The notes: generated from the letters alone by a model not told the origin. Positions 17,607 through 56,206 are shown, counted from the first letter of the stretch. The stretch is DNA of 64,000 nucleotides from an uncultured Planctomycetia bacterium (GCA_964489445.1 CAZAYU010000002.1:355900-419899), one strand, 5' to 3'. Numbers and translations are program-made.

Positions 17607-17778
17607 TAGTCTTAAAAAACATGCCATCCCTTTAACTGTAACCAAAAAAGCAAAAAATGTTGAAAGAAATTGACGCATTTGATAAGGAGATCAGCACTTT
17701 AATGCTATATTATTTTTTTTGTTAAAAGGGGCAGCGTATCGAAAGCTAGGTTTTCAATATTCATTAATCATTCGCTAA

Positions 17779-17973
17779 AGAAGGAAGTTTAAAGTAACGA
17801 CAAATTCAAAACATAGTTATCCTGTATGGCCCGATATTTTAAACTGGCGCTTTATTGCAAACGAACCTAATGTTATATGGGAATCAGATATAACATATAT
17901 CTGGACTCGCGAAGGCTGGTTGTATTTAGCGGTAACACTTGACCTGCATTCTCGCGGTATCAATACACTATGA
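17779..17973 (+). mobile_element. Degraded IS3-family transposase (OrfB, integrase-core) fragment
   Basis: Translation 'NSKHSYPVWPDILNWRFIANEPNVIWESDITYIWTREGWLYLAVTLDLHSRGINTL*' matches the IS3 OrfB block '...P..VW.SDITYI....GW.YLA.V.D..SR.IVGW'. It is bounded by stops. No full transposase or inverted repeats were recognised. Confidence 0.6.
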
Positions 17974-18271
17974 GGGATTTATAGTGTCGGATCAATATGC
18001 AATTGCTCGGATTGATGAATGGCCTTACTACGGTTTCTTTTATCCTGATAATGTATATGGGGTGCAATTTCATCCGGAGCCAAGTAATGGTGCAGGAAAA
18101 TTTTTAGTTAAATTACAAAGATTCTTATTTGATCATAATGTTTATCAGGAGTTTTCAGCAAAAACACTTTCTAAACATGGAAGGCGATATTTAATAATTT
18201 TATTAACAAATGCCAATAGTTACAGTATAATATTGCTTTATTTACTAAACTTATCTGTTGTTTATAATTGA
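17939..18271 (+). pseudogene. Gene fragment carrying a class-I glutamine amidotransferase signature (GVQFHPE), likely a pseudogene remnant
   Basis: 'YGVQFHPEPSNGAGKFL' resembles the conserved GATase1 C-terminal block. There is no N-terminal catalytic Cys region. It begins inside the transposase remnant and has no RBS. Confidence 0.35.
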
Positions 18272-19323
18272 TGTTATTTATTAGAGTCATTAAATATTCA
18301 TTTAAGATAGTCTTATCTTTATTGTTACTAATTATTTTGTTAGAATTAGGTTCAAGATTTATTGTTCTAATTACTTTAAATAATTTTTTCAATAAATATT
18401 TGCCGGATAGCTACGAGAGTATAGCTGTCCAAGCTCAGAATGATACATATAGCTTTCTTAAGTCTTCAACGTTGCCAGATTCTCAGTGTTATTATATATG
18501 GAAAAATGGATTTTTCAGGGGGCCAACAGGTCAGTTTGATATTTATGGTAAGGAAAGCGATGAAATCAGAGTAATGTGTGTAGGTGATTCTACCACTTTT
18601 GGAGTATGTGTAGATTATTATTGGTCTTACCCTACAATATTAGAGAGGCTGTTAAAAGCAAAATATCCAGAATCAAATATAGGGGTACTAAATACTGGTA
18701 TTCCTGGGGCTTCATCGAAACAAATAAAAAGAGTTTTTCAGAAATATCTAGTAAAGTATAAGCCAGATATTGTTGTTTGGCGTACAGGAGTAAGATTAAC
18801 CGATCATTATGATTTACCTCAGAGCTTAGAAAATCCTATTAACAATTTATTGTGGAATATACTATCCAAGTCTACTTTATTTAGGTTGATTTGTTTATTT
18901 GTTGACAGGGTGATTCCGGATAAGCCTCCGGTAGATCATACATTGTATTCTTATCTAATAGAAAGAAATACGACATTGGAGCCTTGTGGTAATTTTGATT
19001 CAAATTTCGCCATAGTAAATGATATTGCGCGAAGCAATGGAACTAAATATGTTTTAGCTGTTGATTATTTGAGGCGGGATTTAGATGGTTCTCAGAATAT
19101 TACAAGCGACTTTGATGATTACCCAGATAAAGATGTGCCTCCGGTAGTAAATACTTATGAAACTTTTAAAGAAATATTAATGGACGTAGATATCAATGAT
19201 GTATTCGTTGACGAATGTCATCTTACAAGGTTAGGCACAAGCGTTATTGCTAATGCAGTGGCTGAACATATAACTACTAATGGTTGGATTGATAGTTTTA
19301 CAAATAAGCATCCAGACGGGTAA
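18268..19323 (+). CDS. SGNH/GDSL-family hydrolase or acyl-esterase with an N-terminal TM anchor
   Basis: Block I 'IRVMCVGDSTTFG' (GDS nucleophile). C-terminal block V 'DECHLTRLG'. It is paralogous to the ORF at 54641. Confidence 0.7.
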   Translation: MMLFIRVIKYSFKIVLSLLLLIILLELGSRFIVLITLNNFFNKYLPDSYESIAVQAQNDTYSFLKSSTLPDSQCYYIWKNGFFRGPTGQFDIYGKESDEIRVMCVGDSTTFGVCVDYYWSYPTILERLLKAKYPESNIGVLNTGIPGASSKQIKRVFQKYLVKYKPDIVVWRTGVRLTDHYDLPQSLENPINNLLWNILSKSTLFRLICLFVDRVIPDKPPVDHTLYSYLIERNTTLEPCGNFDSNFAIVNDIARSNGTKYVLAVDYLRRDLDGSQNITSDFDDYPDKDVPPVVNTYETFKEILMDVDINDVFVDECHLTRLGTSVIANAVAEHITTNGWIDSFTNKHPDG

Positions 19324-19460: not shown

Positions 19461-19706
19461 TTGTTTGCGCTAAAATTTAACATAAAAACAGGCATCAAAG
19501 TATATAAACAAGATAAAAAACATATGCTTAAATGGGCTAAAGAAAAATTTCCTAAATATCTTATATTTAAAGAATTAATTAATTTTTTTTGTAAGAATAG
19601 GCTATGGTGGATGATACCATTAATTATTGCTTTTGTATTCTCAGCAGTGTTAATATGGTTTTGTCAGTCTTCGGCAGTATCTTCCTTGATGTACACTCTA
19701 TTTTAA
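19461..19706 (+). CDS. Small membrane peptide (81 aa, or 60 aa from the internal ATG at 19524) with one C-terminal TM helix, ending ...SSLMYTLF
   Basis: '...NRLWWMIPLIIAFVFSAVLIWF...SSLMYTLF'. It resembles the unannotated peptide at 54486 (KWW + TM + FIYSLF). From memory (unverified), it also resembles the DUF5989 small-membrane-peptide family, whose C-terminus ends 'FIYTLF'. Confidence 0.45.
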   Translation: MFALKFNIKTGIKVYKQDKKHMLKWAKEKFPKYLIFKELINFFCKNRLWWMIPLIIAFVFSAVLIWFCQSSAVSSLMYTLF

Positions 19707-40305: not shown

Positions 40306-40403
40306 CTTATCCCGACTGTGCCTTCTGTAGAACCTAAAATATTTTAAAATAGTAAACTAGTGTCTTATTGTTATATATTTAGAAGAAAGTGTAGGAAAAA
40401 AAT

Positions 40404-42721: not shown

Positions 42722-44419
42722 GTGTCTAAGATTAAATCAATAATCGTAACAGATTTTACTGCCGATGCCTTAAAAGGCTACCTAAACAATGATACCTGCT
42801 ATCCTTTAGTTAACGCAAAGATTACGCCATTTGCTCAGGTTATGCAATCTTATTTCAAGAGATTTCCAGAATTTGGAAAAAATAAGATTAACTTTGCAGT
42901 TGTCTGGACTAGACCAGAAGGCGTTATTGAATCTTTTATGCGCTTTGCTAATTATCAAAGCGCATCAATTAATGAGATATTAGCCGATGTCAACGAGTAT
43001 TGCCGGTTTTTAATAGGTCTTCAAGATAAGGTAAAATTAGTATTTGTTCCGACATGGATTTTCCCTACTTATCATAGAGGACATGGAATGCTGGAAATGA
43101 GAAAAGATTTAGGCATTAGAAATATTCTTATGCAAATGAACTTAATGCTTTCTGATAAGTTAAATGAAACAAAGAATATTTATTTATTGAATGCTCAAAG
43201 ATGGATTGAAAGCGTAGGCAGTGATGCTTTTGATTCAAAGTTGTGGTATTTAGCTAAGATTCCTTTTGATGCTGCAATCTTCAAGGAAGCGGCAAAAGAT
43301 ATTAAGTCTGCATTAAGAGGTATATTTGGTGTTGCAAGAAAGATGATAATCGTTGATTTAGACAATACGATCTGGGGAGGTTCTGTTGGAGAAATAGGAT
43401 GGGAGAAGCTTAAACTTGGCGGGCATGATCCAGTAGGAGAAGCTTTTGTTGACTTTCAGAGAGCTTTAAAGTCATTTATTAACCGTGGCATTTTATTAGG
43501 TATTGTTAGCAAAAATGAGCCGTCCGTTGTGTTAGATGCAATAAATAATCATCCAGAAATGTGTCTAAGATTAAATGATTTTAGTGCATGGGCGATTAAC
43601 TGGGAAGATAAAGCTAAAAATATCATTCGTTTAGCATCGAATTTAAATATTGGTCTTGAATCAATAGTCTTTATTGATGATAATCCATTAGAAAGAGCAA
43701 GGGTCAAAGAGTCTTTGCCGGAGGTTTTTGTTCCTGAATGGCCTAAGAACAAGATGCTGTTTAGGGAAACTTTGCTTAATCTTTCTTGCTTTGATACACC
43801 TTCAATAACTGAGGAGGATTTAGCCAAGACTAGAATGTATATGTCTTTTATCAGCCGTAAAGGGCAGCAAATAAAAATGAAGTCAGTGAATACATGGTTA
43901 AAAAAACTGTTTATTAAAGTAAAAATAGATGAGTTGCAGGATGTTGATATTGAAAGAGTAACGCAACTGTTAAATAAAACAAATCAAATGAATTTAACTA
44001 CTAGACGCCTTATTGCCTCAGAGTTGGATATTTGGGCCCATAAAAGAAATCATAAGCTTTGGACTTTTCGAGTTTCAAATAAATTTGGGGATTTAGGCTT
44101 AGTAGGTGTGGTAAGCCTTGGAATAAACAGAAAAGAAGGCAGGATTGTAGATTTTGTTTTAAGCTGCAGAGCTTTTGGGTTAAGGATTGAAGAAGCTATG
44201 CTCATTGCAACTATACGGTATTCTCAAAGTGTTGGTTTAATAAAAGTGCAGGCAAAATATATCAGCACTCCTAAGAATAAGCCTTGTTTAAATTTTTGGA
44301 GAAAAACAATATTTGAATTTGACAAAAAAAGAAATATCTTTTTTTATAGTCCAGGAAAAACTCATTATTTTCCGCGATACATTACAATAGTAGACAATCG
44401 ACGCAGTGATCCCTGTTAG
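42722..44419 (+). CDS. FkbH-like HAD-superfamily (subfamily IIIC) glyceryl-ACP loading enzyme
   Basis: HAD motif I 'MIIVDLDNTIWGG'. Motif II 'GIVSKN'. Motif IV 'VFIDDNPLERARV'. A C-terminal roughly 200-aa FkbH-type domain. 565 aa. Confidence 0.75.
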   Translation: MSKIKSIIVTDFTADALKGYLNNDTCYPLVNAKITPFAQVMQSYFKRFPEFGKNKINFAVVWTRPEGVIESFMRFANYQSASINEILADVNEYCRFLIGLQDKVKLVFVPTWIFPTYHRGHGMLEMRKDLGIRNILMQMNLMLSDKLNETKNIYLLNAQRWIESVGSDAFDSKLWYLAKIPFDAAIFKEAAKDIKSALRGIFGVARKMIIVDLDNTIWGGSVGEIGWEKLKLGGHDPVGEAFVDFQRALKSFINRGILLGIVSKNEPSVVLDAINNHPEMCLRLNDFSAWAINWEDKAKNIIRLASNLNIGLESIVFIDDNPLERARVKESLPEVFVPEWPKNKMLFRETLLNLSCFDTPSITEEDLAKTRMYMSFISRKGQQIKMKSVNTWLKKLFIKVKIDELQDVDIERVTQLLNKTNQMNLTTRRLIASELDIWAHKRNHKLWTFRVSNKFGDLGLVGVVSLGINRKEGRIVDFVLSCRAFGLRIEEAMLIATIRYSQSVGLIKVQAKYISTPKNKPCLNFWRKTIFEFDKKRNIFFYSPGKTHYFPRYITIVDNRRSDPC

Positions 44420-44481: not shown

Positions 44482-45921
44482 ATGCTATTTACTTCATTAC
44501 AATTTGCAGTATTTTTTATTATTGTTTATGGAGTATATACTCTGCTTAAACACAGACAACAGAATATTATGCTTCTTGTGGCCAGTTATATTTTTTATGG
44601 AGCATGGGATTGGAGATTTTTATTTTTGATATTTATATCAACTGTTTTTGATTATTTTTTTGGGGCAGCAATATATAGGTCTAATAGCAATAAGCAAAAA
44701 AAAATATTTGTTTTTTGTAGTATTTTTACAAATTTATCTATTTTAGTGTTTTTTAAATATTTAAATTTTTTTATTCTGAATTTGCAGTTTTTATTAAGAC
44801 GTTTTAATCTGCCTAATGTAATTTTTCCTTTACACATAATACTTCCTTTGGGGTTGTCTTTTTATATTTTTCAAAAAATGAGCTATACCATAGATATATA
44901 TAGAGGTGAGATGAAACCTGTAAGAAAATTTTCAGATTTTGCACTTTTTGTAAGTTTCTTTCCCCAGCTTCTTGCAGGGCCAATCGAAAGAGCAAAGCAC
45001 CTTATTCCGCAGATAATCTTTCCTAGAAAATTAACCATGGATAAATTTCAAAAAGGCTGTTATCTAATATCTTGGGGCATATTCCAGAAACTTTTTGTTG
45101 CGGATAATTTATCAAAAGTTGTGGATTCTGTATTTTCTAATCCGGGTCCTTACAATGGTTTAGAAGTTTTGTTAGCTTCTTATGCTTTTACATTTCAGAT
45201 ATTTTGTGATTTTGCAGGTTATAGCAATATAGCAAGGGGTCTTGGTAAATTAATGGGATTTGATATTATCAATAATTTTGATCTCCCATTTTTTGTTACA
45301 AACGTACAAGATTTTTGGAAAAAATGGCACATTAGCTTGAGCACTTGGATTAAGGATTATGTGTATTTTCCGCTTTTTTATCACATGCGAATGATTAGAG
45401 GTAAAATGCGTATCTATATTACATTAGTAGGTACGATGATTTTGTTAGGCTTGTGGCATGGCGCAAGATGGACCTTTGTCCTTTTTGGGTTATATTATGG
45501 TTGTTTGCTTAGCTTGTATGTAATGTCAAAACCTGTTTTATGCAAAGCGATAAAAATTGTAAAATTCACAAAAAGCAGGCAGTGGTTTTGGGTTAAAGTT
45601 ATTTTCATGTTTCATATTACAGTGCTTGGAATGCTAATTTTTAGAGCTAATTCTGTTGGCCAGCTAATACAAATGGTTCATAGCGTTGTGTTTAATTTTT
45701 CTATTCCAGAATATTCGATTATGCTCAGAATGATCGGAAAAATATTATTTTATATTAGTTTTTTGTTACTTATCCAGTATTTTCAATTTAGAAGAAATGA
45801 TCATTTTGTTGTTCTTAAATGGCATTGGGCGTTGCAAGGATTTATATATTTTATAATTATGTTTTTTTTGTTTACTTTTGGCAAAAGCGGAGGAAATGAG
45901 TTTGTATATTTTCAATTCTAA
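44482..45921 (+). CDS. MBOAT-family membrane O-acyltransferase (DltB/AlgI-like), copy 1
   Basis: MBOAT signature 'FWKKWHISLSTWIKDYVYFPL' with the conserved His. About 10 TM helices. Confidence 0.85.
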   Translation: MLFTSLQFAVFFIIVYGVYTLLKHRQQNIMLLVASYIFYGAWDWRFLFLIFISTVFDYFFGAAIYRSNSNKQKKIFVFCSIFTNLSILVFFKYLNFFILNLQFLLRRFNLPNVIFPLHIILPLGLSFYIFQKMSYTIDIYRGEMKPVRKFSDFALFVSFFPQLLAGPIERAKHLIPQIIFPRKLTMDKFQKGCYLISWGIFQKLFVADNLSKVVDSVFSNPGPYNGLEVLLASYAFTFQIFCDFAGYSNIARGLGKLMGFDIINNFDLPFFVTNVQDFWKKWHISLSTWIKDYVYFPLFYHMRMIRGKMRIYITLVGTMILLGLWHGARWTFVLFGLYYGCLLSLYVMSKPVLCKAIKIVKFTKSRQWFWVKVIFMFHITVLGMLIFRANSVGQLIQMVHSVVFNFSIPEYSIMLRMIGKILFYISFLLLIQYFQFRRNDHFVVLKWHWALQGFIYFIIMFFLFTFGKSGGNEFVYFQF

Positions 45922-47152
45922 TTTCCGAAAGATTCTGCGATTTTTCATGCTTAATCGTGCTTTTTTTGCTGGAGTTTTATTTTTTTGTTTTTCGCAATTA
46001 ATTTGTTTGAATATTTCCAATATAAGCAAAACAAGGCATAAGCAAGTGATAGAGCACAAGCGACAAGCAGTAAAGAGTATCGATTTCAGCAAAGATAAAG
46101 GATTGCGAGAGTCTGTATTTTTTTTTGGCTCATCCAAGATCTTAGCAGCTATAATTCCAAAATTTTTTGACGAATGCAATGAAGATGGAACATATTCTTA
46201 TAATTTTGCAATACCAGGATTACCATTGGCATCTCAATATTTTATTTTTAAAGAATATTTGGAAAAAACCGAAGTACCCGATTATGCAATAATAAAACTA
46301 AATAATGGAATATTTCCTCTTTGGCTTTTTCCTTCTTTTTCTATTCAAGGCGCGAGTTTGTCCGAGGTTTTGCAGTATGCTTTTCTTACGAAAGATGTAT
46401 CAATGTTATTTAACTATTTTATTCCATCAAGGGTGTATTGGTCCGGCATTAGCAGATTTATTGCTGGTAGGGCCCTATCTTTAGTACCTGATAGCGTGCG
46501 GGCATTACATAAATCAAGATATCTTAATTTTTTTTCTAGTAAAAATATGTATTACTATAATTGGGAGTTTGAATATGATGCTAGCTACATTTTTCCAAAA
46601 GAATATGCAAGAGCGTTGAGAGAATCTTTAGAAAAGAATCGAGGATATTATTATATGGTGGAAAAGGCTATGCCAAGAACAGGCGCTTTTGAAAGTATTA
46701 CAGTGCCACCGAAACACAGAAAATACTATGAAGCAATAATAGAGGCGGGTAGGGAAGGAAAAAACTTTAAAGGGCCTGTTTCTGTAAAGACTACAAAGCG
46801 CGAAAGAGATACGAAAAAGAAGCTTGATACTTTTTTCTTGGATAAATTTTTTATATTGGCCAAAGATTATAAGTGTAAAGTCATTTTGGTTGGAGATTAT
46901 ATGCCTGATAGCAACAAAGATACTCCAGGCGTTTATATTGAGGAAAATATAACCCTGGGCTGTTGGGAGCTATTGCAAAAAAAATATGATAATGTATTTT
47001 TTTTAAAGGATGGCTTTAAGACCGTATTTTATAGTCCGGATTTTTTTTCTGACCCCGAACATTTGGATTATGAGGGGGCAAAAAAATTTACAAAAAAGAT
47101 TGCTAAGGAATTTCAAGCAATAAAAAAAATAATCAAAAGCAATAAACAATAA
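45878..47152 (+). CDS. DltD/AlgJ/AlgX-like (SGNH-related) acyl-transfer partner protein
   Basis: N-terminal TM anchor. 'VFFFGSSKI' corresponds to the DltD GSSE nucleophile block. C-terminal 'DPEHLDYEGAKKF' corresponds to the D..H catalytic block. The start may be the ATG at 45896. It overlaps the MBOAT gene's end. Confidence 0.6.
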   Translation: MAKAEEMSLYIFNSNFRKILRFFMLNRAFFAGVLFFCFSQLICLNISNISKTRHKQVIEHKRQAVKSIDFSKDKGLRESVFFFGSSKILAAIIPKFFDECNEDGTYSYNFAIPGLPLASQYFIFKEYLEKTEVPDYAIIKLNNGIFPLWLFPSFSIQGASLSEVLQYAFLTKDVSMLFNYFIPSRVYWSGISRFIAGRALSLVPDSVRALHKSRYLNFFSSKNMYYYNWEFEYDASYIFPKEYARALRESLEKNRGYYYMVEKAMPRTGAFESITVPPKHRKYYEAIIEAGREGKNFKGPVSVKTTKRERDTKKKLDTFFLDKFFILAKDYKCKVILVGDYMPDSNKDTPGVYIEENITLGCWELLQKKYDNVFFLKDGFKTVFYSPDFFSDPEHLDYEGAKKFTKKIAKEFQAIKKIIKSNKQ

Positions 47153-47153
47153 A

Positions 47154-48332
47154 ATGCATTTTATAAGTTTAACATATTTGGTATTTCTATTTATATCTGC
47201 TACCATCTATTGGTTTTTTCCCGTCAAGCATCGAAAGTTGTTTTTAATATTTATCAGTTTATTATTTATCTGCAGTTATAAATGGGTAATTGCTTTTTTA
47301 TTTTTATTCATGGGGACAGCGACTTATTTTAGCAGCAGATTTATATTAAGTACGACTTCAAATTGGAAGAAAAAAATAATTTTTATATCAATTTTGATTG
47401 GTTTTATAGTAAGTCTCTTTTTATATAAGTATTTTGGGCTAAATTTATTGTTGGTACATTCATCTTTTGAATCATTTGATTTTCTTATAGCGCTGGGGTT
47501 TTCATATGTTTCCTTTAGAATGATACATTATATTATTGAGAGCTACCGGAAGAATGTTCCTGACGTTTCATTCTTGGATTTTATTTGTTATGTTGTGTTT
47601 TTTCCCATTTTTTTGGCCGGTCCGATAGAAAGATTTCAAGCGTTTCATCGGCAAACAGCGGAAAATAAACACATAGGATTTTATGATGTAAATTATGGAT
47701 TATATCGTATAATTTGCGGTGTTTTTAAAAAGGTTGCTGTTGCAGACGTTATAAGCAAGCTAATCACGCCAGTATTATACTATCCTCTTGGCCATTCCAA
47801 AACTATATTGATATTATCGGTATATGGATTGGCGATACAAATTTATATGGATTTTTCTGGGTATACGGATATAGCAATTGGTAGTGCCAGATTATTTGGC
47901 TATCGGCTTACGGAAAATTTTAATAGGCCATTTTTACAGAAAAATATAGCGTTGTTTTGGAGAAATTGGCATATATCCCTGTATACTTGGATAAGGGATT
48001 ATTTCTTTTTTCCGTTATTTGGTTATCGGGCATCAAAGGTAAAAATCTATATTGGAATATTTTTCAGTATGATGGTATTTATTCTTTGGCACCGGCTATC
48101 ATTAAGCTTTTTTATCTTAGGATTGTATCATGGAACGGGCCTTATTTGTTGGCATATTTTTCAAGGTGTGAAACGTAAATATCCAATAATTCGTCGAGGA
48201 ATATCAAAACGGTACTTGGATCCTATTTCGATCTTTTTTACGTTTAGTTTTCATGCTTTTGGTACCTTATTCTTTATAATGAATTTTGAGCAGGTATTAA
48301 TTATTGTAAAAAGTATTATAAATCTAAAGTGA
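47154..48332 (+). CDS. MBOAT-family membrane O-acyltransferase (DltB/AlgI-like), copy 2
   Basis: 'FWRNWHISLYTWIRDYFFFPLFG' MBOAT signature. 392 aa. Confidence 0.85.
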   Translation: MHFISLTYLVFLFISATIYWFFPVKHRKLFLIFISLLFICSYKWVIAFLFLFMGTATYFSSRFILSTTSNWKKKIIFISILIGFIVSLFLYKYFGLNLLLVHSSFESFDFLIALGFSYVSFRMIHYIIESYRKNVPDVSFLDFICYVVFFPIFLAGPIERFQAFHRQTAENKHIGFYDVNYGLYRIICGVFKKVAVADVISKLITPVLYYPLGHSKTILILSVYGLAIQIYMDFSGYTDIAIGSARLFGYRLTENFNRPFLQKNIALFWRNWHISLYTWIRDYFFFPLFGYRASKVKIYIGIFFSMMVFILWHRLSLSFFILGLYHGTGLICWHIFQGVKRKYPIIRRGISKRYLDPISIFFTFSFHAFGTLFFIMNFEQVLIIVKSIINLK

Positions 48333-50076: not shown

Positions 50077-50164
50077 TTTTCTAGAGGGCGGAATAGATAG
50101 GTAAGATATATTGCGTAATGTGCCGTATTATGTAAGCGTAATGATTATTAAGAAGGAGGTGAAT

Positions 50165-50416
50165 ATGGAGAAAAAAGAGACAATCAGACAATTTATTATC
50201 GAATATTTTCTTTCAGGTAGCGGAGAAATTAAGGATGATGATTCATTATTTGAAGCAGGAATAATAGACTCCCTGAGCCTTCTTGAATTGATCGCTTTTA
50301 TAGAAAAAACATATGGCATTTCTATAAGCATGAGCCAAATCACTATTAGTAATTTTGATTCTATAAATAAAATCTATAAATTAATAAAAGGTAGTAAACG
50401 TAAGGGCATTAATTAG
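50165..50416 (+). CDS. Acyl/peptidyl carrier protein (ACP 2)
   Basis: 'GIIDSLSLLELIAFIEKTYG' (DSL Ser attachment site). Strong RBS 'aggaggtgaat' before the ATG at 50165. The track ORF starts earlier at 50111. Confidence 0.7.
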   Translation: MEKKETIRQFIIEYFLSGSGEIKDDDSLFEAGIIDSLSLLELIAFIEKTYGISISMSQITISNFDSINKIYKLIKGSKRKGIN

Positions 50417-50418
50417 TA

Positions 50419-52857
50419 ATGTTTAATATAAGAATTAATAATGTTACATATGATTTTTCGCGGGAGAAAAATGTTATGATGGCTTTGCGTTTCAAAGGGG
50501 CAAGGCAGCAATGTTTATTTAAGTATGCACGAAATATAAGAGATAAAGTTTTCTCTAAACAGGTCGAAATAAGGAGTGTTATCGAGTATTCTAATGTTTG
50601 TCAGCAGGCATGTAATTATTGCGGAATGAGCAAAGCGTCAATGGTAACTCGTTACATATTAAAAAGAAATCAGCTAATATCTCGTGTTAATAAGTTATAT
50701 GATTGTGGACGTAGAATTATAATATTACAGGCGGGTGAGTGCAATAATGATAATTATTTAGATAATTTGTTTGGCCTAATTAAGATGTTAAAAAATGAAT
50801 ATCCTTATTTAGTCATAGTGGGTAGTTTTGGTAATTTATCGCGAGATAATTATAAAAGATTGAGGGATATTGGGGTCGATAGGTATTTACTTAAATTTGA
50901 AACATCAGATGCTAAGCTATACAGAAGAATTAAGCCTACCGATTGTCTTAAAAAAAGACTAGATTGCATTACATTTTTAAAGAAAATAGGTTTTTATGTC
51001 AGCTCTGGCAATATAACTGGGATACCGCAACAATCTCTTAGTAGTTTAGCTGATGATATTTTTTTACTTAAAAAATTAGATATTTGCATGGGTAGCACAT
51101 CACCTTTTATTCCTAACGAGGTTTCTAATTATAGAGATTGTTTTCCGGGAGATATTAATCTTACGCTTAATTTTATAGCAATCCTAAGGATACTCTGTCC
51201 GACTATGTTAATACCTGCTACAAGTTCTTTGGAATTGATTATAAAGGGAGGCCAGTATCTGGGGCTGATGGCAGGAGCAAATGTGCTTACTTTGCATGAT
51301 GGAACTCCCGCAAATAAAGAAAAAATGTTTTTGTTGTATAAAAAGAATCGGTACAAGCCTAAGGGAATTCTATTTAATATTGTTCAAAGAGCAGGCCTGA
51401 AGCCAAGCTTATTTTCTCTTGTTAAGAATAAAGCAGAAAACTCTCTTTTTTATAAACTCGTTAGCCAGAATGTCAATCGTAAGAGTTCTTATATTTATTC
51501 CGATAGCAGTAGGTATACATACGAGGAAGTGCTATTATTGACTTCGAAATGCTGTTCGTTCTTGCAAGGCAATAATATTAAGGAGAGGGATGTAGTAATG
51601 TTAGCTTTATTTGATTCAATAGAATTCATTATTGTTTGCCTAGCTTGCATAAGACTAGGCATAATTGTTGCACCGATAGATCCGCTATCAACTGTAGACG
51701 AGCTAAGGTTTTTAATCTCTGATTGTGTACCCAAAATTATATTAGCAACAGATAGTATTGCTAAGAAATTAAGATACAAGAATGTTATGAAAATAACCAA
51801 CGATAATTGCCCTAAATATTTTTTTTCGTTGCTCTGCAGGAGAAAAAAAAGTATTTTTTTAGCTGCTGTTGATAAAAATAATCCGGCTATTATTTTGTAT
51901 ACTTCTGGGACTACAGGCAAGGCCAAAGGTGTAGTCCACAGCTATAATGATCTACTTACTATGAATTTTCCACATAAGATATTGAGGGTATGCAAAAAAG
52001 ATATTTTCTTTTCTTATTCTAGGATTTATACTAGTTTTGGTTTTGGTAATAGTTTACTTTTTCCGTTATATTGTGGTGCGTCTGTAATTTTATCCAGAAA
52101 TATCCCAAATCCGGTTGCATTGTCTGATGTGTTATTGTATAATCCTACATTATTTTTTGCGGTTCCCGGCGTGTATAAGCTATTGTTAAGAAGTAGAAAA
52201 CTAATAAAACATAATTTTAGTTGTGTTCGTCAATTTATTTCTTCTGGTGAGAGTCTCGGTGAGGATATTTTTAAGCAATGGGAAAAAGTTTATGGCTTTA
52301 GGTTATTGGATTGTTTTGGAACATCTGAGATGTGCCATCCGTTTATTTCGAATATTCCGGGAGAGGAAAAATCTGGGACTTGCGGAAAAACGGTAGAAGG
52401 ATTTCAGGTAAAGTTTGATAAAAAAGGTAAAATGTTTTACAAGGGGCCTTCCTTGTTTTCTGGATATTATAGAAGGAATAAATTTGTAAAAGAAACAATG
52501 GTGGTTGATGGATGGTTTGAATCAAATGATATTGGACGCGTAGATAAAAATGGCAGTATAGTTTTAAAAGGCAGAGACAATCTAATATTTAAGATTAATG
52601 GTAAGTGGATTTCAGCCTTAAATATAGAGGATAAAATAAATCGATTGGAGTTAATAAAGGAAAGCGCTGCTATAAAGAAAGCAGACGGTTTATATCTGTA
52701 TGTTTCTTTAAATTTAAAGGAAATAAAACCTGTTGAGGCTATAAGCTTAGTAAGAAGTTATTGTGTAGAAAAATTGAAAATTAACGAATTTCCCGTAAAA
52801 ATAAACTTGTTAGATGAAATACCGAAGACAAGAAGCGGGAAAATTAAAAGACAGTAA
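50419..52857 (+). CDS. Fusion protein: N-terminal HydE/PylB/BioB-like radical SAM domain plus C-terminal adenylation (AMP-binding, acyl-CoA-synthetase/DltA-like) domain
   Basis: Radical SAM: 'IEYSNVCQQACNYCGMS' (CX3CX2C) and 'IIILQAGE', reminiscent of HydE/PylB 'SNYC..NC.YCG...VLQSGE'. Adenylation: 'ILYTSGTTGKAKGVV' (A3), 'GESLG', 'GFRLLDCFGTSE' (A5), 'GWFESNDIGRVDKNGSIVLKGRDNLIFKINGKWI' (A7/A8), 'PKTRSGKIKRQ' (A10). It is a single 812-aa frame. Confidence 0.75.
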   Translation: MFNIRINNVTYDFSREKNVMMALRFKGARQQCLFKYARNIRDKVFSKQVEIRSVIEYSNVCQQACNYCGMSKASMVTRYILKRNQLISRVNKLYDCGRRIIILQAGECNNDNYLDNLFGLIKMLKNEYPYLVIVGSFGNLSRDNYKRLRDIGVDRYLLKFETSDAKLYRRIKPTDCLKKRLDCITFLKKIGFYVSSGNITGIPQQSLSSLADDIFLLKKLDICMGSTSPFIPNEVSNYRDCFPGDINLTLNFIAILRILCPTMLIPATSSLELIIKGGQYLGLMAGANVLTLHDGTPANKEKMFLLYKKNRYKPKGILFNIVQRAGLKPSLFSLVKNKAENSLFYKLVSQNVNRKSSYIYSDSSRYTYEEVLLLTSKCCSFLQGNNIKERDVVMLALFDSIEFIIVCLACIRLGIIVAPIDPLSTVDELRFLISDCVPKIILATDSIAKKLRYKNVMKITNDNCPKYFFSLLCRRKKSIFLAAVDKNNPAIILYTSGTTGKAKGVVHSYNDLLTMNFPHKILRVCKKDIFFSYSRIYTSFGFGNSLLFPLYCGASVILSRNIPNPVALSDVLLYNPTLFFAVPGVYKLLLRSRKLIKHNFSCVRQFISSGESLGEDIFKQWEKVYGFRLLDCFGTSEMCHPFISNIPGEEKSGTCGKTVEGFQVKFDKKGKMFYKGPSLFSGYYRRNKFVKETMVVDGWFESNDIGRVDKNGSIVLKGRDNLIFKINGKWISALNIEDKINRLELIKESAAIKKADGLYLYVSLNLKEIKPVEAISLVRSYCVEKLKINEFPVKINLLDEIPKTRSGKIKRQ

Positions 52858-54402: not shown

Positions 54403-54485
54403 TGGGTTTAGCAATGGTAAGCGATTTTCATCCATCATGATAGGGCATAAAAATTTGACAACAATCCAAGAGGAGAGCGAATAAG

Positions 54486-54638
54486 ATGAGATTTAATTAT
54501 AAGGATTTTATTCAAATAATTTTGACTCAAAATAAATGGTGGGTGACAACAATGCTTATTAGTACAATATTGATTGTCTTTATAATTTTGTATTTGATAA
54601 AATATGAGACTAGTGAGTTTATCTATAGCCTGTTTTAG
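54486..54638 (+). CDS. Unannotated 50-aa membrane peptide ending ...SEFIYSLF, paralogous to the peptide at 19461-19706
   Basis: Translation 'MRFNYKDFIQIILTQNKWWVTTMLISTILIVFIILYLIKYETSEFIYSLF'. RBS 'gaggagagcgaataag' before the ATG. It is absent from the ORF track because it is short. Confidence 0.5.
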   Translation: MRFNYKDFIQIILTQNKWWVTTMLISTILIVFIILYLIKYETSEFIYSLF

Positions 54639-54640
54639 TC

Positions 54641-56206
54641 TTGCAACCAGATATTATGGTTAAAAATAATTGTTTGTTTCTTAAGAGGAAAATTTTATTG
54701 ATAATATTCGGAATATTTTTTTCTTTAATAGTTGTTGAGCTGGGATTGCGAATCGTTGGGTGGGGGTGGTCGGCGCATGATAACTTTAGAAATAAATCTT
54801 ATTTGGTTGAAACCGATTCGGATACAATCAGGATTCTTTGCTTGGGGGCATGCTATACAGCTGGAGTGGGAGTTGAGCCAGATAAAACATATCCACATTA
54901 CTTAGAGAAATTTTTAAGCGAGCATTACCCAACAAAATCTTTTCGTGTTATTAATCGAGGTGTTCGTGGTAAAACATTGTCGTTTTTTGTGAATCGGTTA
55001 GAGCGTTTTGTAAAAGATTATTCTCCTCGAATAATTATTATGAATATAGGAAGTAGTGTGGATTTTTATGAGAAAAATGTGCTTTTAGCGAATAGCAATT
55101 TATTATCTTCTGTTGATAAAATTAAAATTAGCTTGCGTATATTTCTCAAAAAATTTAAAATTTATAGAGTGTTTAATCTTATGTTTTCTTCACTAAACAG
55201 AAGAAATGCGGAAATAAACGATAAGGAGGATATTTCTCGAGAATTTTATGCGGAAGGTGAAGAAAATAAGTATCATGCCCAGGTTAGGGAGTTGCAATGT
55301 AAAGTTAAGGTAGACCCACAATCTTCTGAAAATTGGAGTCGTCTTGCTTTTATTTATGCAGACCAAGGGCTTTATCAGTTGTCAGAAAAATACATAAAAA
55401 AAGCCATAGAACTTGACCAAAACAATGGATGGAATTATTTGCATTTATTTTGGTGTTATGTCTTTCAACGTGAGTATGAATTAGCGGTAAGGTCTCAAAA
55501 ACAAGCGCTAGATGTGGACCCTGCTATTATCAAATGGCTGGATGATGAGATAAAAAATATCAATGGATTTATAAAGCGTAAGCCGTATGTAATGTCATAT
55601 TATTTCCATTTATCAGATAGGTATGCTATGCTTGGTGATTATGAGCGCGCTATAAAAACGCTAAAACAGATTTTATATAAAGGTCCTGACCATATTGATT
55701 ATGTTGATAGATTGTCTTTTTATGAGACAGTGGTTCGAAAAACAAAGAACAGCGATGAAATATGCGTAAATAGTTCAGTAGGTAGGAAAAAGTATTTCAA
55801 TCGGGAAAATAGCCAGCATTGGGCGTTTATGGCTGAAGCAGAAGGCTTTCTTAAAGAAAAAATACCCGTAAATGATTCAGAAAAACTAGATGGATGTAAA
55901 ATATTTGACAGATTATTTAAATATAATTTAAGAAAAATTAATAAAATTGCCAGAAAATATAATATTAAATTTTTTCTTGAAAATATGGGGTCTTCATTTG
56001 AGCAGCAAGAGATTGTAGAAAGTGCTTGCAAAGAATCAAATATACCTTTGGTTGATTTGTATTCTTATTTTAGAAATACATCGGATGATGCGAGCCTTTT
56101 CCATTCTTCTGTTTCCTTGAGGCTTAGTGAAAAAGGGAATAAAATTGTAGCTGAGAAAATATTTAAAGCGTTAGTAAGTGCTGGTGTTGTAGATGAGGTT
56201 AATTAG
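54641..56206 (+). CDS. SGNH-like paralog with an inserted TPR-repeat region. The catalytic GDS is replaced by GAC.
   Basis: 'IRILCLGACYTAGVGVE...YPHYLEKFLSEHYP...INRGVRG' is collinear with the 18268 protein 'IRVMCVGDSTTFGVCVD...YPTILERLLKAKYP...LNTGIPG'. A TPR-like segment spans about residues 200-330. The probable start is the ATG at 54656. Confidence 0.6.
   Translation: MQPDIMVKNNCLFLKRKILLIIFGIFFSLIVVELGLRIVGWGWSAHDNFRNKSYLVETDSDTIRILCLGACYTAGVGVEPDKTYPHYLEKFLSEHYPTKSFRVINRGVRGKTLSFFVNRLERFVKDYSPRIIIMNIGSSVDFYEKNVLLANSNLLSSVDKIKISLRIFLKKFKIYRVFNLMFSSLNRRNAEINDKEDISREFYAEGEENKYHAQVRELQCKVKVDPQSSENWSRLAFIYADQGLYQLSEKYIKKAIELDQNNGWNYLHLFWCYVFQREYELAVRSQKQALDVDPAIIKWLDDEIKNINGFIKRKPYVMSYYFHLSDRYAMLGDYERAIKTLKQILYKGPDHIDYVDRLSFYETVVRKTKNSDEICVNSSVGRKKYFNRENSQHWAFMAEAEGFLKEKIPVNDSEKLDGCKIFDRLFKYNLRKINKIARKYNIKFFLENMGSSFEQQEIVESACKESNIPLVDLYSYFRNTSDDASLFHSSVSLRLSEKGNKIVAEKIFKALVSAGVVDEVN

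Follow-up and report, generated by a model that had tools for sequence, protein, structure and literature searches.

A DUF5989-related membrane microprotein encoded beside an SGNH/TPR gene in a Planctomycetia polysaccharide cluster: a candidate DltX-like acyl shuttle

The 64-kb stretch of DNA considered here, which we call the window, comes from an uncultured Planctomycetia bacterium (GCA_964489445.1 CAZAYU010000002.1:355900-419899) and is a polysaccharide-biosynthesis block of 32-33% G+C, with genes almost all on the plus strand, that encodes glycosyltransferases, three PMT_2-type enzymes, two Wzx-like flippases and five sulfatase-family proteins. Within it, a 50-codon open reading frame (ORF) at 54486..54638, hereafter p2, lies directly before the gene for an SGNH-like protein with a tetratricopeptide repeat (TPR) insertion, hereafter SGNH/TPR, and a related peptide, p1, is encoded at 19524..19706. 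The features that bear most closely on p2, including two membrane-bound O-acyltransferases (MBOATs), are as follows.

44482..45921, plus strand: long MBOAT, 479 amino acids, with a shuttle motif fused at its C-terminus (Pfam MBOAT)
47154..48332, plus strand: short MBOAT, 392 amino acids, DltB-like, proposed loader of p2 (Pfam MBOAT)
50111..50416, plus strand: carrier protein (PP-binding), candidate DltC analogue (Pfam PP-binding, 36.4 bits; gene call in the public contig L001)
50419..52857, plus strand: radical-SAM plus AMP-binding fusion, 812 amino acids, proposed acyl-carrier-protein ligase and DltA analogue
54470..54475, plus strand: Shine-Dalgarno-like GAGGAG, read from the sequence, 10 nucleotides 5′ of the p2 ATG
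54486..54638, plus strand: p2, 50-amino-acid microprotein, DUF5989 sub-clade member and candidate acyl shuttle (translation, profile models and relatives)
54543..54599, plus strand: predicted single transmembrane helix, p2 residues 20-38 (VTTMLISTILIVFIILYLI), a 19-residue hydrophobic stretch
54618..54635, plus strand: C-terminal hexapeptide FIYSLF (FXYXXF) of p2, with Tyr47 as the proposed acyl acceptor
54656..56206, plus strand: SGNH/TPR, membrane-anchored, 516 amino acids, proposed DltD-like acceptor and transferase

The p2 ORF translates as MRFNYKDFIQIILTQNKWWVTTMLISTILIVFIILYLIKYETSEFIYSLF*, exactly as quoted in a first-pass annotation of the window, which had also credited it with a good ribosome-binding site; the GAGGAG listed above bears this out, and none of the nine open in-frame codons upstream of the ATG offers an alternative start. 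The peptide carries NKWW, then the hydrophobic stretch, then the terminal FIYSLF, its last ten residues being ETSEFIYSLF. As computed from the sequence, the N-terminal part has a net charge of +2 and the C-terminal tail a net charge of −1, so that the positive-inside rule, applied to these flanks, predicts a cytoplasmic N-terminus and an external C-terminus. Endings of the form F.Y..F occur in 3 of the 838 stop-to-stop segments of the window against 0.24 expected, and the three are the long MBOAT, p2 and one antisense ORF that is probably there by chance. The antisense case is a 58-codon open segment within a sulfatase gene, ending at 40379 on the minus strand in FSYTFF and without any other feature of the family. 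The suggestion that annotation had missed p2 is true only of some public assemblies; others with identical sequence (JGI, ENA and Logan among the sources) do call the ORF. Three contigs (L002-L004) match the window at 100% identity and are thus comparatively uninformative, and a word-indexed homologue search with p2 returned only p2 itself.

A first point of comparison lies within the window, where p1 follows a second SGNH gene.

18268..19323, plus strand: SGNH-like protein, 351 amino acids, with canonical GDS and DxxH (Pfam Lipase_GDSL_2, E 2e-7)
19524..19706, plus strand: p1, 60-amino-acid canonical DUF5989 peptide ending LMYTLF (Pfam DUF5989)

The first-pass annotation had placed this peptide at 19461, in the correct frame but at an upstream TTG extension, ATG 19524 being the best start. 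A gap-free alignment of the two peptides spans 46 residues and has a BLOSUM62 score of 61, which none of 5000 composition-preserving shuffles reached (z = 6.5), and each is the other's best match among the 104 small ATG ORFs of the window. The similarity proposed between them is therefore real and not an artefact of AT-rich hydrophobic sequence. Both share, as had been noticed, an N(K/R)(L)WW-type stretch, written more generally as (K/R)(x)WW, together with one hydrophobic helix and a terminal Y(S/T)LF.

Both peptides fall in the orbit of a larger family, DUF5989 (PF19451), whose architecture of about 45-80 residues, (K/R)xWW, one helix and a terminal F(I/V)Y(T/S/A)LF is also that of p2. The Pfam model recognizes p1 firmly (45.6 bits, E 7e-12; gathering cut-off 27 bits). 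A profile built from p1 and p2 drew 360 matches at E ≤ 1e-3 from 1.84 billion representative proteins; among the best 150 of these, from which the length figures are taken (149 for the endings), nearly all are 46-100 residues long and align to their final residue, and 126 of 149 end in LF, with FIYTLF in 75, FIYSLF in 14, and FVYTLF and FIYALF in 10 each. A local hidden Markov model (HMM) of 149 family representatives, a set itself collected with the p1+p2 profile, matches p1 (E 1.4e-19) and p2 (E 2.3e-13) and nothing else among 1174 six-frame segments of the window. Six relatives (P0007, P0008, P0020, P0021, P0024 and P0073) are 34-46% identical to p2 and share with it the tail (L)YL(I/L)(K/R)Y-x-x-(S/T)(E/D)FIYSL(F/L), as opposed to the canonical QSSA(I/V)(A/S)PFIYTLF. 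WW and the FIYSL core are invariant across these seven sequences; six of them align with an invariant FIYSLF, and the seventh, P0073, ends FIYSLL. The six relatives score 26.3-34.9 bits against PF19451, four of them above the cut-off. These sequence comparisons place p2, as a divergent member, in a separate sub-clade of DUF5989, and the family assignment raised at the outset, firm for p1, holds for p2 at the level of this sub-clade only. A scan of a genome collection with a three-sequence alignment found one canonical DUF5989, in a metagenome-assembled genome of Methylacidiphilales, and no member of the sub-clade. DUF5989 also occurs in fusions, namely with a GT2 glycosyltransferase to which it is C-terminal (P0096), with the C-terminus of a carbamoyltransferase (P0122) and with a multi-helix membrane segment (P0036), and in all three FIYTLF stays terminal.

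These comparisons also settle, to a large extent, whether p2 could be a chance open frame. The low G+C of the DNA (32%), the shortness of the ORF and its omission from several public annotations would all suit such a view; yet the shuffle result, the invariant WW and FIYSL core of seven sub-clade sequences, six of them ending FIYSLF, the good ribosome-binding site and the position beside SGNH/TPR, kept in six loci, leave it effectively refuted.

The conservation of that position comes from six independent sub-clade loci with enough DNA, namely the window and the five below, each given with the coordinates of its SGNH/TPR homologue and its gene order.

L007/L008 (L007 8177-9706): three sulfatases, peptide, SGNH/TPR, 390-amino-acid MBOAT, B12-radical-SAM, small carrier-like protein
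L009 (8220-9752): 339-amino-acid MBOAT, carrier protein, U32 peptidase, acyl-CoA dehydrogenase, AMP-ligase, peptide, SGNH/TPR
L011 (1917-3401): acyl-CoA dehydrogenase, AMP-ligase, peptide, SGNH/TPR, sulfatase
L014 (2986-4464): sulfatase, 361-amino-acid MBOAT, peptide, SGNH/TPR
L018 (3225-4748 and 8762-10306): 331-amino-acid MBOAT, carrier-like protein, peptide, SGNH/TPR

In all six, a p2-type peptide lies 5-42 nucleotides upstream of an SGNH/TPR homologue of 493-516 residues. The homologues of the related loci are only 32-38% identical, and the relatives thus come from clearly different organisms. Wherever the flank is long enough, the locus includes a short MBOAT (331-392 residues); carrier proteins are found in L007, L009 and L018 (weak matches, 19-20 bits), and AMP-ligases in L009 and L011/L013. 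Taken together, these gene orders define the peptide and SGNH/TPR as a conserved module that is accompanied by a short MBOAT and, in most cases, by a carrier and a ligase. The functional pairing of peptide and SGNH protein that the first-pass annotation had proposed is accordingly well founded, in six of six sub-clade loci and, more loosely, in about one third of canonical DUF5989 loci, which have an SGNH-like gene within two genes. L018 holds two SGNH/TPR paralogues, and the peptide precedes only one of them.

The partner itself is unusual. Its start at ATG 54656 is backed by the N-termini of homologues, in preference to TTG 54641 or to TTG 54698, the start used by some gene callers. The gap from the p2 stop is then 17 nucleotides, and would be 2 to TTG 54641, neither of which is the 3 bp claimed before. 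The protein has its own N-terminal membrane helix and matches Pfam Lipase_GDSL_2 (E 5e-9) over SGNH blocks I-II, at about residues 60-140; TPR repeats follow at about 200-350, with the remainder of the SGNH-like fold C-terminal to them. This insertion of a TPR region between the SGNH halves is a trait of the whole family of about 500 residues. Block I reads LG[APS]C[YF]T in all seven SGNH/TPR homologues, so that an invariant cysteine (Cys66) replaces the nucleophilic serine, and the histidine position of block V is R or Q in all seven, with no DxxH. The protein thus has neither the canonical GDS nor DxxH and is related to the SGNH hydrolases by its fold, with an active site that departs from theirs. 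The cysteine at the serine position and the Arg or Gln at the histidine position suggest non-canonical chemistry, whether through a thioester acyl-enzyme or by another route. DltD (PF04914) gave no match to it at E ≤ 1. A word-indexed search with SGNH/TPR found itself and one weak SGNH match, in a locus (L005) that has no peptide.

The C-terminal hexapeptide of p2 has well-studied counterparts. DltX and PatA use FXYXXF, placed at an extracytoplasmic C-terminus, as a tyrosine acyl shuttle, as established in 2023-2025; DltX hands its acyl group on to DltD, an SGNH protein, at the catalytic serine and also bridges DltB and DltD, and PatA-like MBOATs bear the same hexapeptide (e.g., FIYANF) on two extra C-terminal helices (PMC12148441). 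Both arrangements have an echo in the window. The long MBOAT ends in GKSGGNEFVYFQF (terminal NEFVYFQF), and the short one ends in VKSIINLK, without a C-terminal FXYXXF. The two align over residues 1-403 of the long protein (32% identity, E 5e-55), and since the shared core stops at 403, the short MBOAT is without exactly the last 76 residues, that is, the two helices and the motif. Both keep the histidine of WHISL. Against solved structures the short MBOAT matches DltB only (E 2e-25), and the short MBOATs of L007, L009 and L014 likewise do without a terminal FXYXXF. The long MBOAT is an internal control, part of a second acylation system of PatA type. This contrast between the two MBOATs is a direct observation, as are the ORF, its conservation, its family, its motif and its gene neighbourhood.

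The parallel with DltX extends beyond the motif. Like DltX, p2 has about 50 residues, a basic N-terminus, one transmembrane helix and a short tail, predicted to lie outside, that ends in FXYXXF, and like DltX it is encoded with a motif-less short MBOAT, a carrier protein, an AMP-forming ligase and a membrane-anchored SGNH-fold protein. The carrier gene of the window, for which public gene callers give a start at 50165, is directly followed by the ligase gene, an unusual fusion with an N-terminal radical-SAM part (Pfam Radical_SAM, E 2e-15) and a C-terminal AMP-binding ligase (Pfam AMP-binding, E 7e-57). The differences are also considerable. DltX of Bacillus thuringiensis, which is MERLKEIWSRP-LTQWVAKTVYYLAILFALLWLY-GFHDTNTSTFIYNEF and ends TSTFIYNEF (PMC5541007), matches the DltX model (PF12459) at 2e-21 and does not match DUF5989, whereas p2 belongs to DUF5989 and lies outside the DltX HMM. 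The p2 gene directly precedes the SGNH gene, and dltX precedes the ligase gene. The SGNH partner of p2 is outside the DltD family, with its TPR insertion and its cysteine for serine; the ligase at the p2 locus is fused to a radical-SAM domain; and p2 sits in a giant polysaccharide cluster with sulfatases and B12-radical-SAM genes, unlike DltX, which serves teichoic acid synthesis (the dltXABCD D-alanylation system of Gram-positive bacteria). In PatA/PatB, AlgI and further MBOAT-SGNH systems of acylation, too, an FXYXXF at the extracytoplasmic C-terminus hands an acyl group to an SGNH-fold partner, and the 479-residue MBOAT of the window is of this fused-motif type, but at the p2 locus the motif is on a separate microprotein accompanied by a carrier protein and a ligase.

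Because FXYXXF is the published shuttle, the nearby MBOAT lacks it, and a carrier and a ligase are present, we infer a Dlt-like pathway, and on balance we consider it somewhat probable that p2, a genuine single-pass membrane microprotein, acts like DltX as an acyl carrier from the MBOAT to SGNH/TPR. In such a pathway, the AMP-forming ligase (50419..52857) would charge the carrier protein (50111..50416) with an acyl or aminoacyl group, which the short MBOAT (47154..48332) would move across the membrane onto Tyr47 in the FIYSLF of p2, at the outer face. The acyl-Tyr47 would then be handed to SGNH/TPR, probably onto the invariant Cys66, and this enzyme would place the group on a cell-envelope polysaccharide. 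p2 would probably also hold the MBOAT and SGNH/TPR together, as DltX does. The membrane-anchoring or chaperoning role that the first-pass annotation had suggested seemed to us too vague, and the FIYSLF ending, the motif-less MBOAT, the carrier and the ligase refine it to a putative tyrosine acyl shuttle.

A purely structural role nevertheless deserves weighing, namely that p2 is only an anchor, assembly factor or chaperone for SGNH/TPR and takes no covalent part. Their adjacency is tight and conserved, the two are probably co-translated, DltX itself bridges DltB and DltD (PMC12148441), and as SGNH/TPR is without the canonical catalytic triad, the pair may have no transferase function. An anchor, though, needs no invariant terminal hexapeptide with a tyrosine in the same form as that of a proven shuttle, SGNH/TPR already has a membrane helix of its own, and it would go unexplained why the co-occurring MBOATs are exactly those without the fused motif. 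We regard this alternative as rather unlikely.

The canonical branch of DUF5989 offers a different partner set. We took a census of 80 metagenomic loci, with up to two neighbours per side; 74 have at least one neighbour. By Pfam, carbamoyltransferases account for 29 upstream and 17 downstream neighbour proteins, SxtJ for 17, Lipase_GDSL_2 for 9 and 7, and AlgX-like SGNH proteins for 3. Counted by locus, 45 of the 74 have a carbamoyltransferase, 24 an SGNH-like gene and 13 both. Canonical members resemble p2 in their (K/R)xWW, single helix, terminal F(I/V)Y(T/S)LF and frequent SGNH/GDSL neighbour, and differ in pairing with a carbamoyltransferase and SxtJ, where the p2 sub-clade pairs with MBOAT, carrier and ligase. 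These neighbour counts indicate that the pairing of a DUF5989 peptide with an SGNH protein is a theme of the whole family, the donor side differing by sub-clade. In the saxitoxin cluster, sxtI (a carbamoyltransferase), sxtJ, sxtK (165 bp, function unknown) and sxtL (GDSL) stand in a row (PMC2679770), and from its gene size and position, SxtK is probably a DUF5989 protein. In a canonical locus (L015, 6848..7374; L016), the DUF5989 gene is flanked by two more tiny ORFs, of 34 and 71 amino acids, the group lying between a B12-radical-SAM gene and the carbamoyltransferase gene; the 71-residue product matches nothing in Pfam and contains a single hydrophobic helix.

One might therefore suppose that p2, too, is a DUF5989/SxtK-type accessory of a carbamoyltransferase/SxtJ system and that its link to the MBOAT is incidental. 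Its family membership, the frequency of carbamoyltransferases within two genes of canonical members, the 17 SxtJ neighbours and the saxitoxin gene order (PMC2679770) all lean that way. Neither tblastn nor Pfam found a carbamoyltransferase anywhere in the 64-kb window, however, neither carbamoyltransferase nor SxtJ is annotated in the six sub-clade loci, and the sub-clade has a tail signature and a partner set of its own, which makes this explanation improbable.

The acyl-shuttle reading of p2 must itself be set against several results that weigh on the other side. PF19451 aligns to p2 over model positions 5-49 of 49, but at 18.6 bits (E 0.002) the match lies under the cut-off. The DltX model (PF12459) does not match p1 or p2 at E ≤ 1 or the sub-clade at E ≤ 10, and a profile-profile comparison (hhalign) of the sub-clade with DltX gives E 0.0036 over the last 24 columns with a probability of 9%, which leaves room for convergence or for a likeness confined to the motif. 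By local phmmer none of the 74 canonical loci has an MBOAT, and the 25 Pfam families listed for each side do not include it; the ancestral role of DUF5989 need not, then, be linked to an MBOAT. In the window, the short MBOAT gene lies 6 kb upstream of p2, with a B12-radical-SAM gene, the carrier protein, the ligase fusion and a sulfatase in between. Lacking the canonical serine and DxxH, SGNH/TPR need not work as a classical acyl-enzyme transferase and might even be non-catalytic; a single-sequence structure model of it (predicted local distance difference test score, pLDDT, 41.5) is unusable for fold comparison. Every chemical step is drawn from the motif, the architecture and the conserved neighbourhood, and the topology and the formation of a complex are likewise predictions.

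Direct similarity to the known shuttles is, in addition, marginal. The Smith-Waterman score of p2 against DltX (41) was reached by 54 of 5000 shuffles, and that against the tail of the long MBOAT (35) by 46 of 5000; the latter alignment sets KWHW...NEFVYFQF opposite KWW...SEFIYSLF with two single-residue gaps. The sub-clade profile found no match among the sequences of solved structures, nor did an approximate DltX-like bait yield a match. Given this marginal similarity, the claim is that p2 works like DltX and not that it is a DltX homologue.

The abundance of radical-SAM genes invites yet another explanation, in which p2 would be the precursor or substrate of a radical-SAM enzyme, in the manner of a ribosomally synthesized and post-translationally modified peptide (RiPP), or else a regulatory upstream ORF for SGNH/TPR. 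At least eight B12-binding radical-SAM enzymes are encoded in the window (gene starts including 8805, 13068, 22580, 36624, 38079, 48610 and 61450), radical-SAM/SPASM genes adjoin canonical peptides in L015 and L017, and the spacing from p2 to the downstream gene is short. But p2 has a full transmembrane helix, and its conservation falls on the C-terminal end instead of on a leader; the 80-locus census does not show radical-SAM families as recurrent neighbours; and amino-acid identities of 34-46% across divergent loci disfavour a regulatory ORF. Both forms of this explanation are highly improbable. The mix of B12-radical-SAM and sulfatase genes recurs in the related loci L007, L009 and L018.

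If p2 does act as an acyl shuttle, a split of MBOAT and microprotein in acylation would exist well outside the D-alanylation of teichoic acids. MBOAT/SGNH pathways other than Dlt are described as having neither a carrier protein nor a DltX-like microprotein (PMC12148441, 2025), and the p2 locus and its six relatives look like a non-Dlt pathway that has both, in an uncultured organism of low G+C. What appears to be new here is a different microprotein family and a cysteine-type SGNH/TPR partner in a Dlt-like setting. DUF5989, for which no mention was found in the literature searched (nor for PF19451, FIYTLF or FIYSLF), would gain a testable function, a family of cysteine-variant SGNH/TPR transferases would have been identified, a role would be suggested for the unexplained sxtJ and sxtK genes found with carbamoyltransferases, and an essential pathway component would turn out to be hidden wherever gene callers omit ORFs of 50 codons. 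A broader and considerably more tentative idea, which we rate as possible but doubtful, is that DUF5989 as a whole, with its hundreds of clusters at 50% identity and probably including SxtK, consists of DltX-like tyrosine shuttles. The p2 sub-clade would serve DltB-like MBOATs with a carrier and a cysteine-type SGNH/TPR protein, and the canonical majority would carry carbamoyl on the tyrosine from a cytoplasmic carbamoyltransferase and the membrane protein SxtJ, which would take the place of an MBOAT, to an extracytoplasmic SGNH enzyme. Were this so, canonical DUF5989 would represent a new route for the O-carbamoylation of surface glycans.

Two further genes flank the long MBOAT.

42722..44419: FkbH-domain protein, 565 amino acids (TIGR01686, E 2e-74), directly upstream of the long MBOAT
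45947..47152, plus strand: 401-amino-acid membrane-anchored protein with an N-terminal hydrophobic segment, following the long MBOAT

Enzymes of the FkbH type charge carrier proteins with a glyceryl unit, so a glycerate-derived acyl group may be one cargo in the cluster. The product of 45947..47152 has no Pfam or NCBIfam match (E ≤ 10); its position and hydrophobic segment suggest an undescribed transferase, probably the partner of the long MBOAT.

Finally, the surroundings of p1 speak to the proposal that peptide and SGNH gene had been duplicated as a unit. The order differs at the two sites, the 18268..19323 gene lying 200 nucleotides upstream of p1, with a gap of 507 nucleotides downstream of the peptide. 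The two SGNH proteins are related, as had been claimed, but only distantly (32% identity over 79 residues, E 8e-12), one having GDS and DxxH and the other G-x-C, no DxxH and the TPR insert. The peptides, moreover, belong to different sub-clades with different partner genes, p1 having a tail of the canonical DUF5989 type, SSAVSSLMYTLF, so a recent duplication of the two as a unit is not supported. The 18268..19323 protein has 11 phmmer matches among neighbours of canonical DUF5989 genes elsewhere, and no decayed carbamoyltransferase or SxtJ was found in the gaps around p1. A word-indexed search with p1 found no protein sharing three 5-residue words in a collection of 5.8 billion clusters; p1 has apparently never been called as a gene, although contigs of the same organism sit in that collection. 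The gap 5′ of the 18268 SGNH gene (17607..18270) holds pseudogene remnants in different frames, the core of an IS3-type transposase and the end of a class-I glutamine amidotransferase (VYGVQFHPE), which suggest that the p1 locus may have undergone a past insertion and rearrangement.

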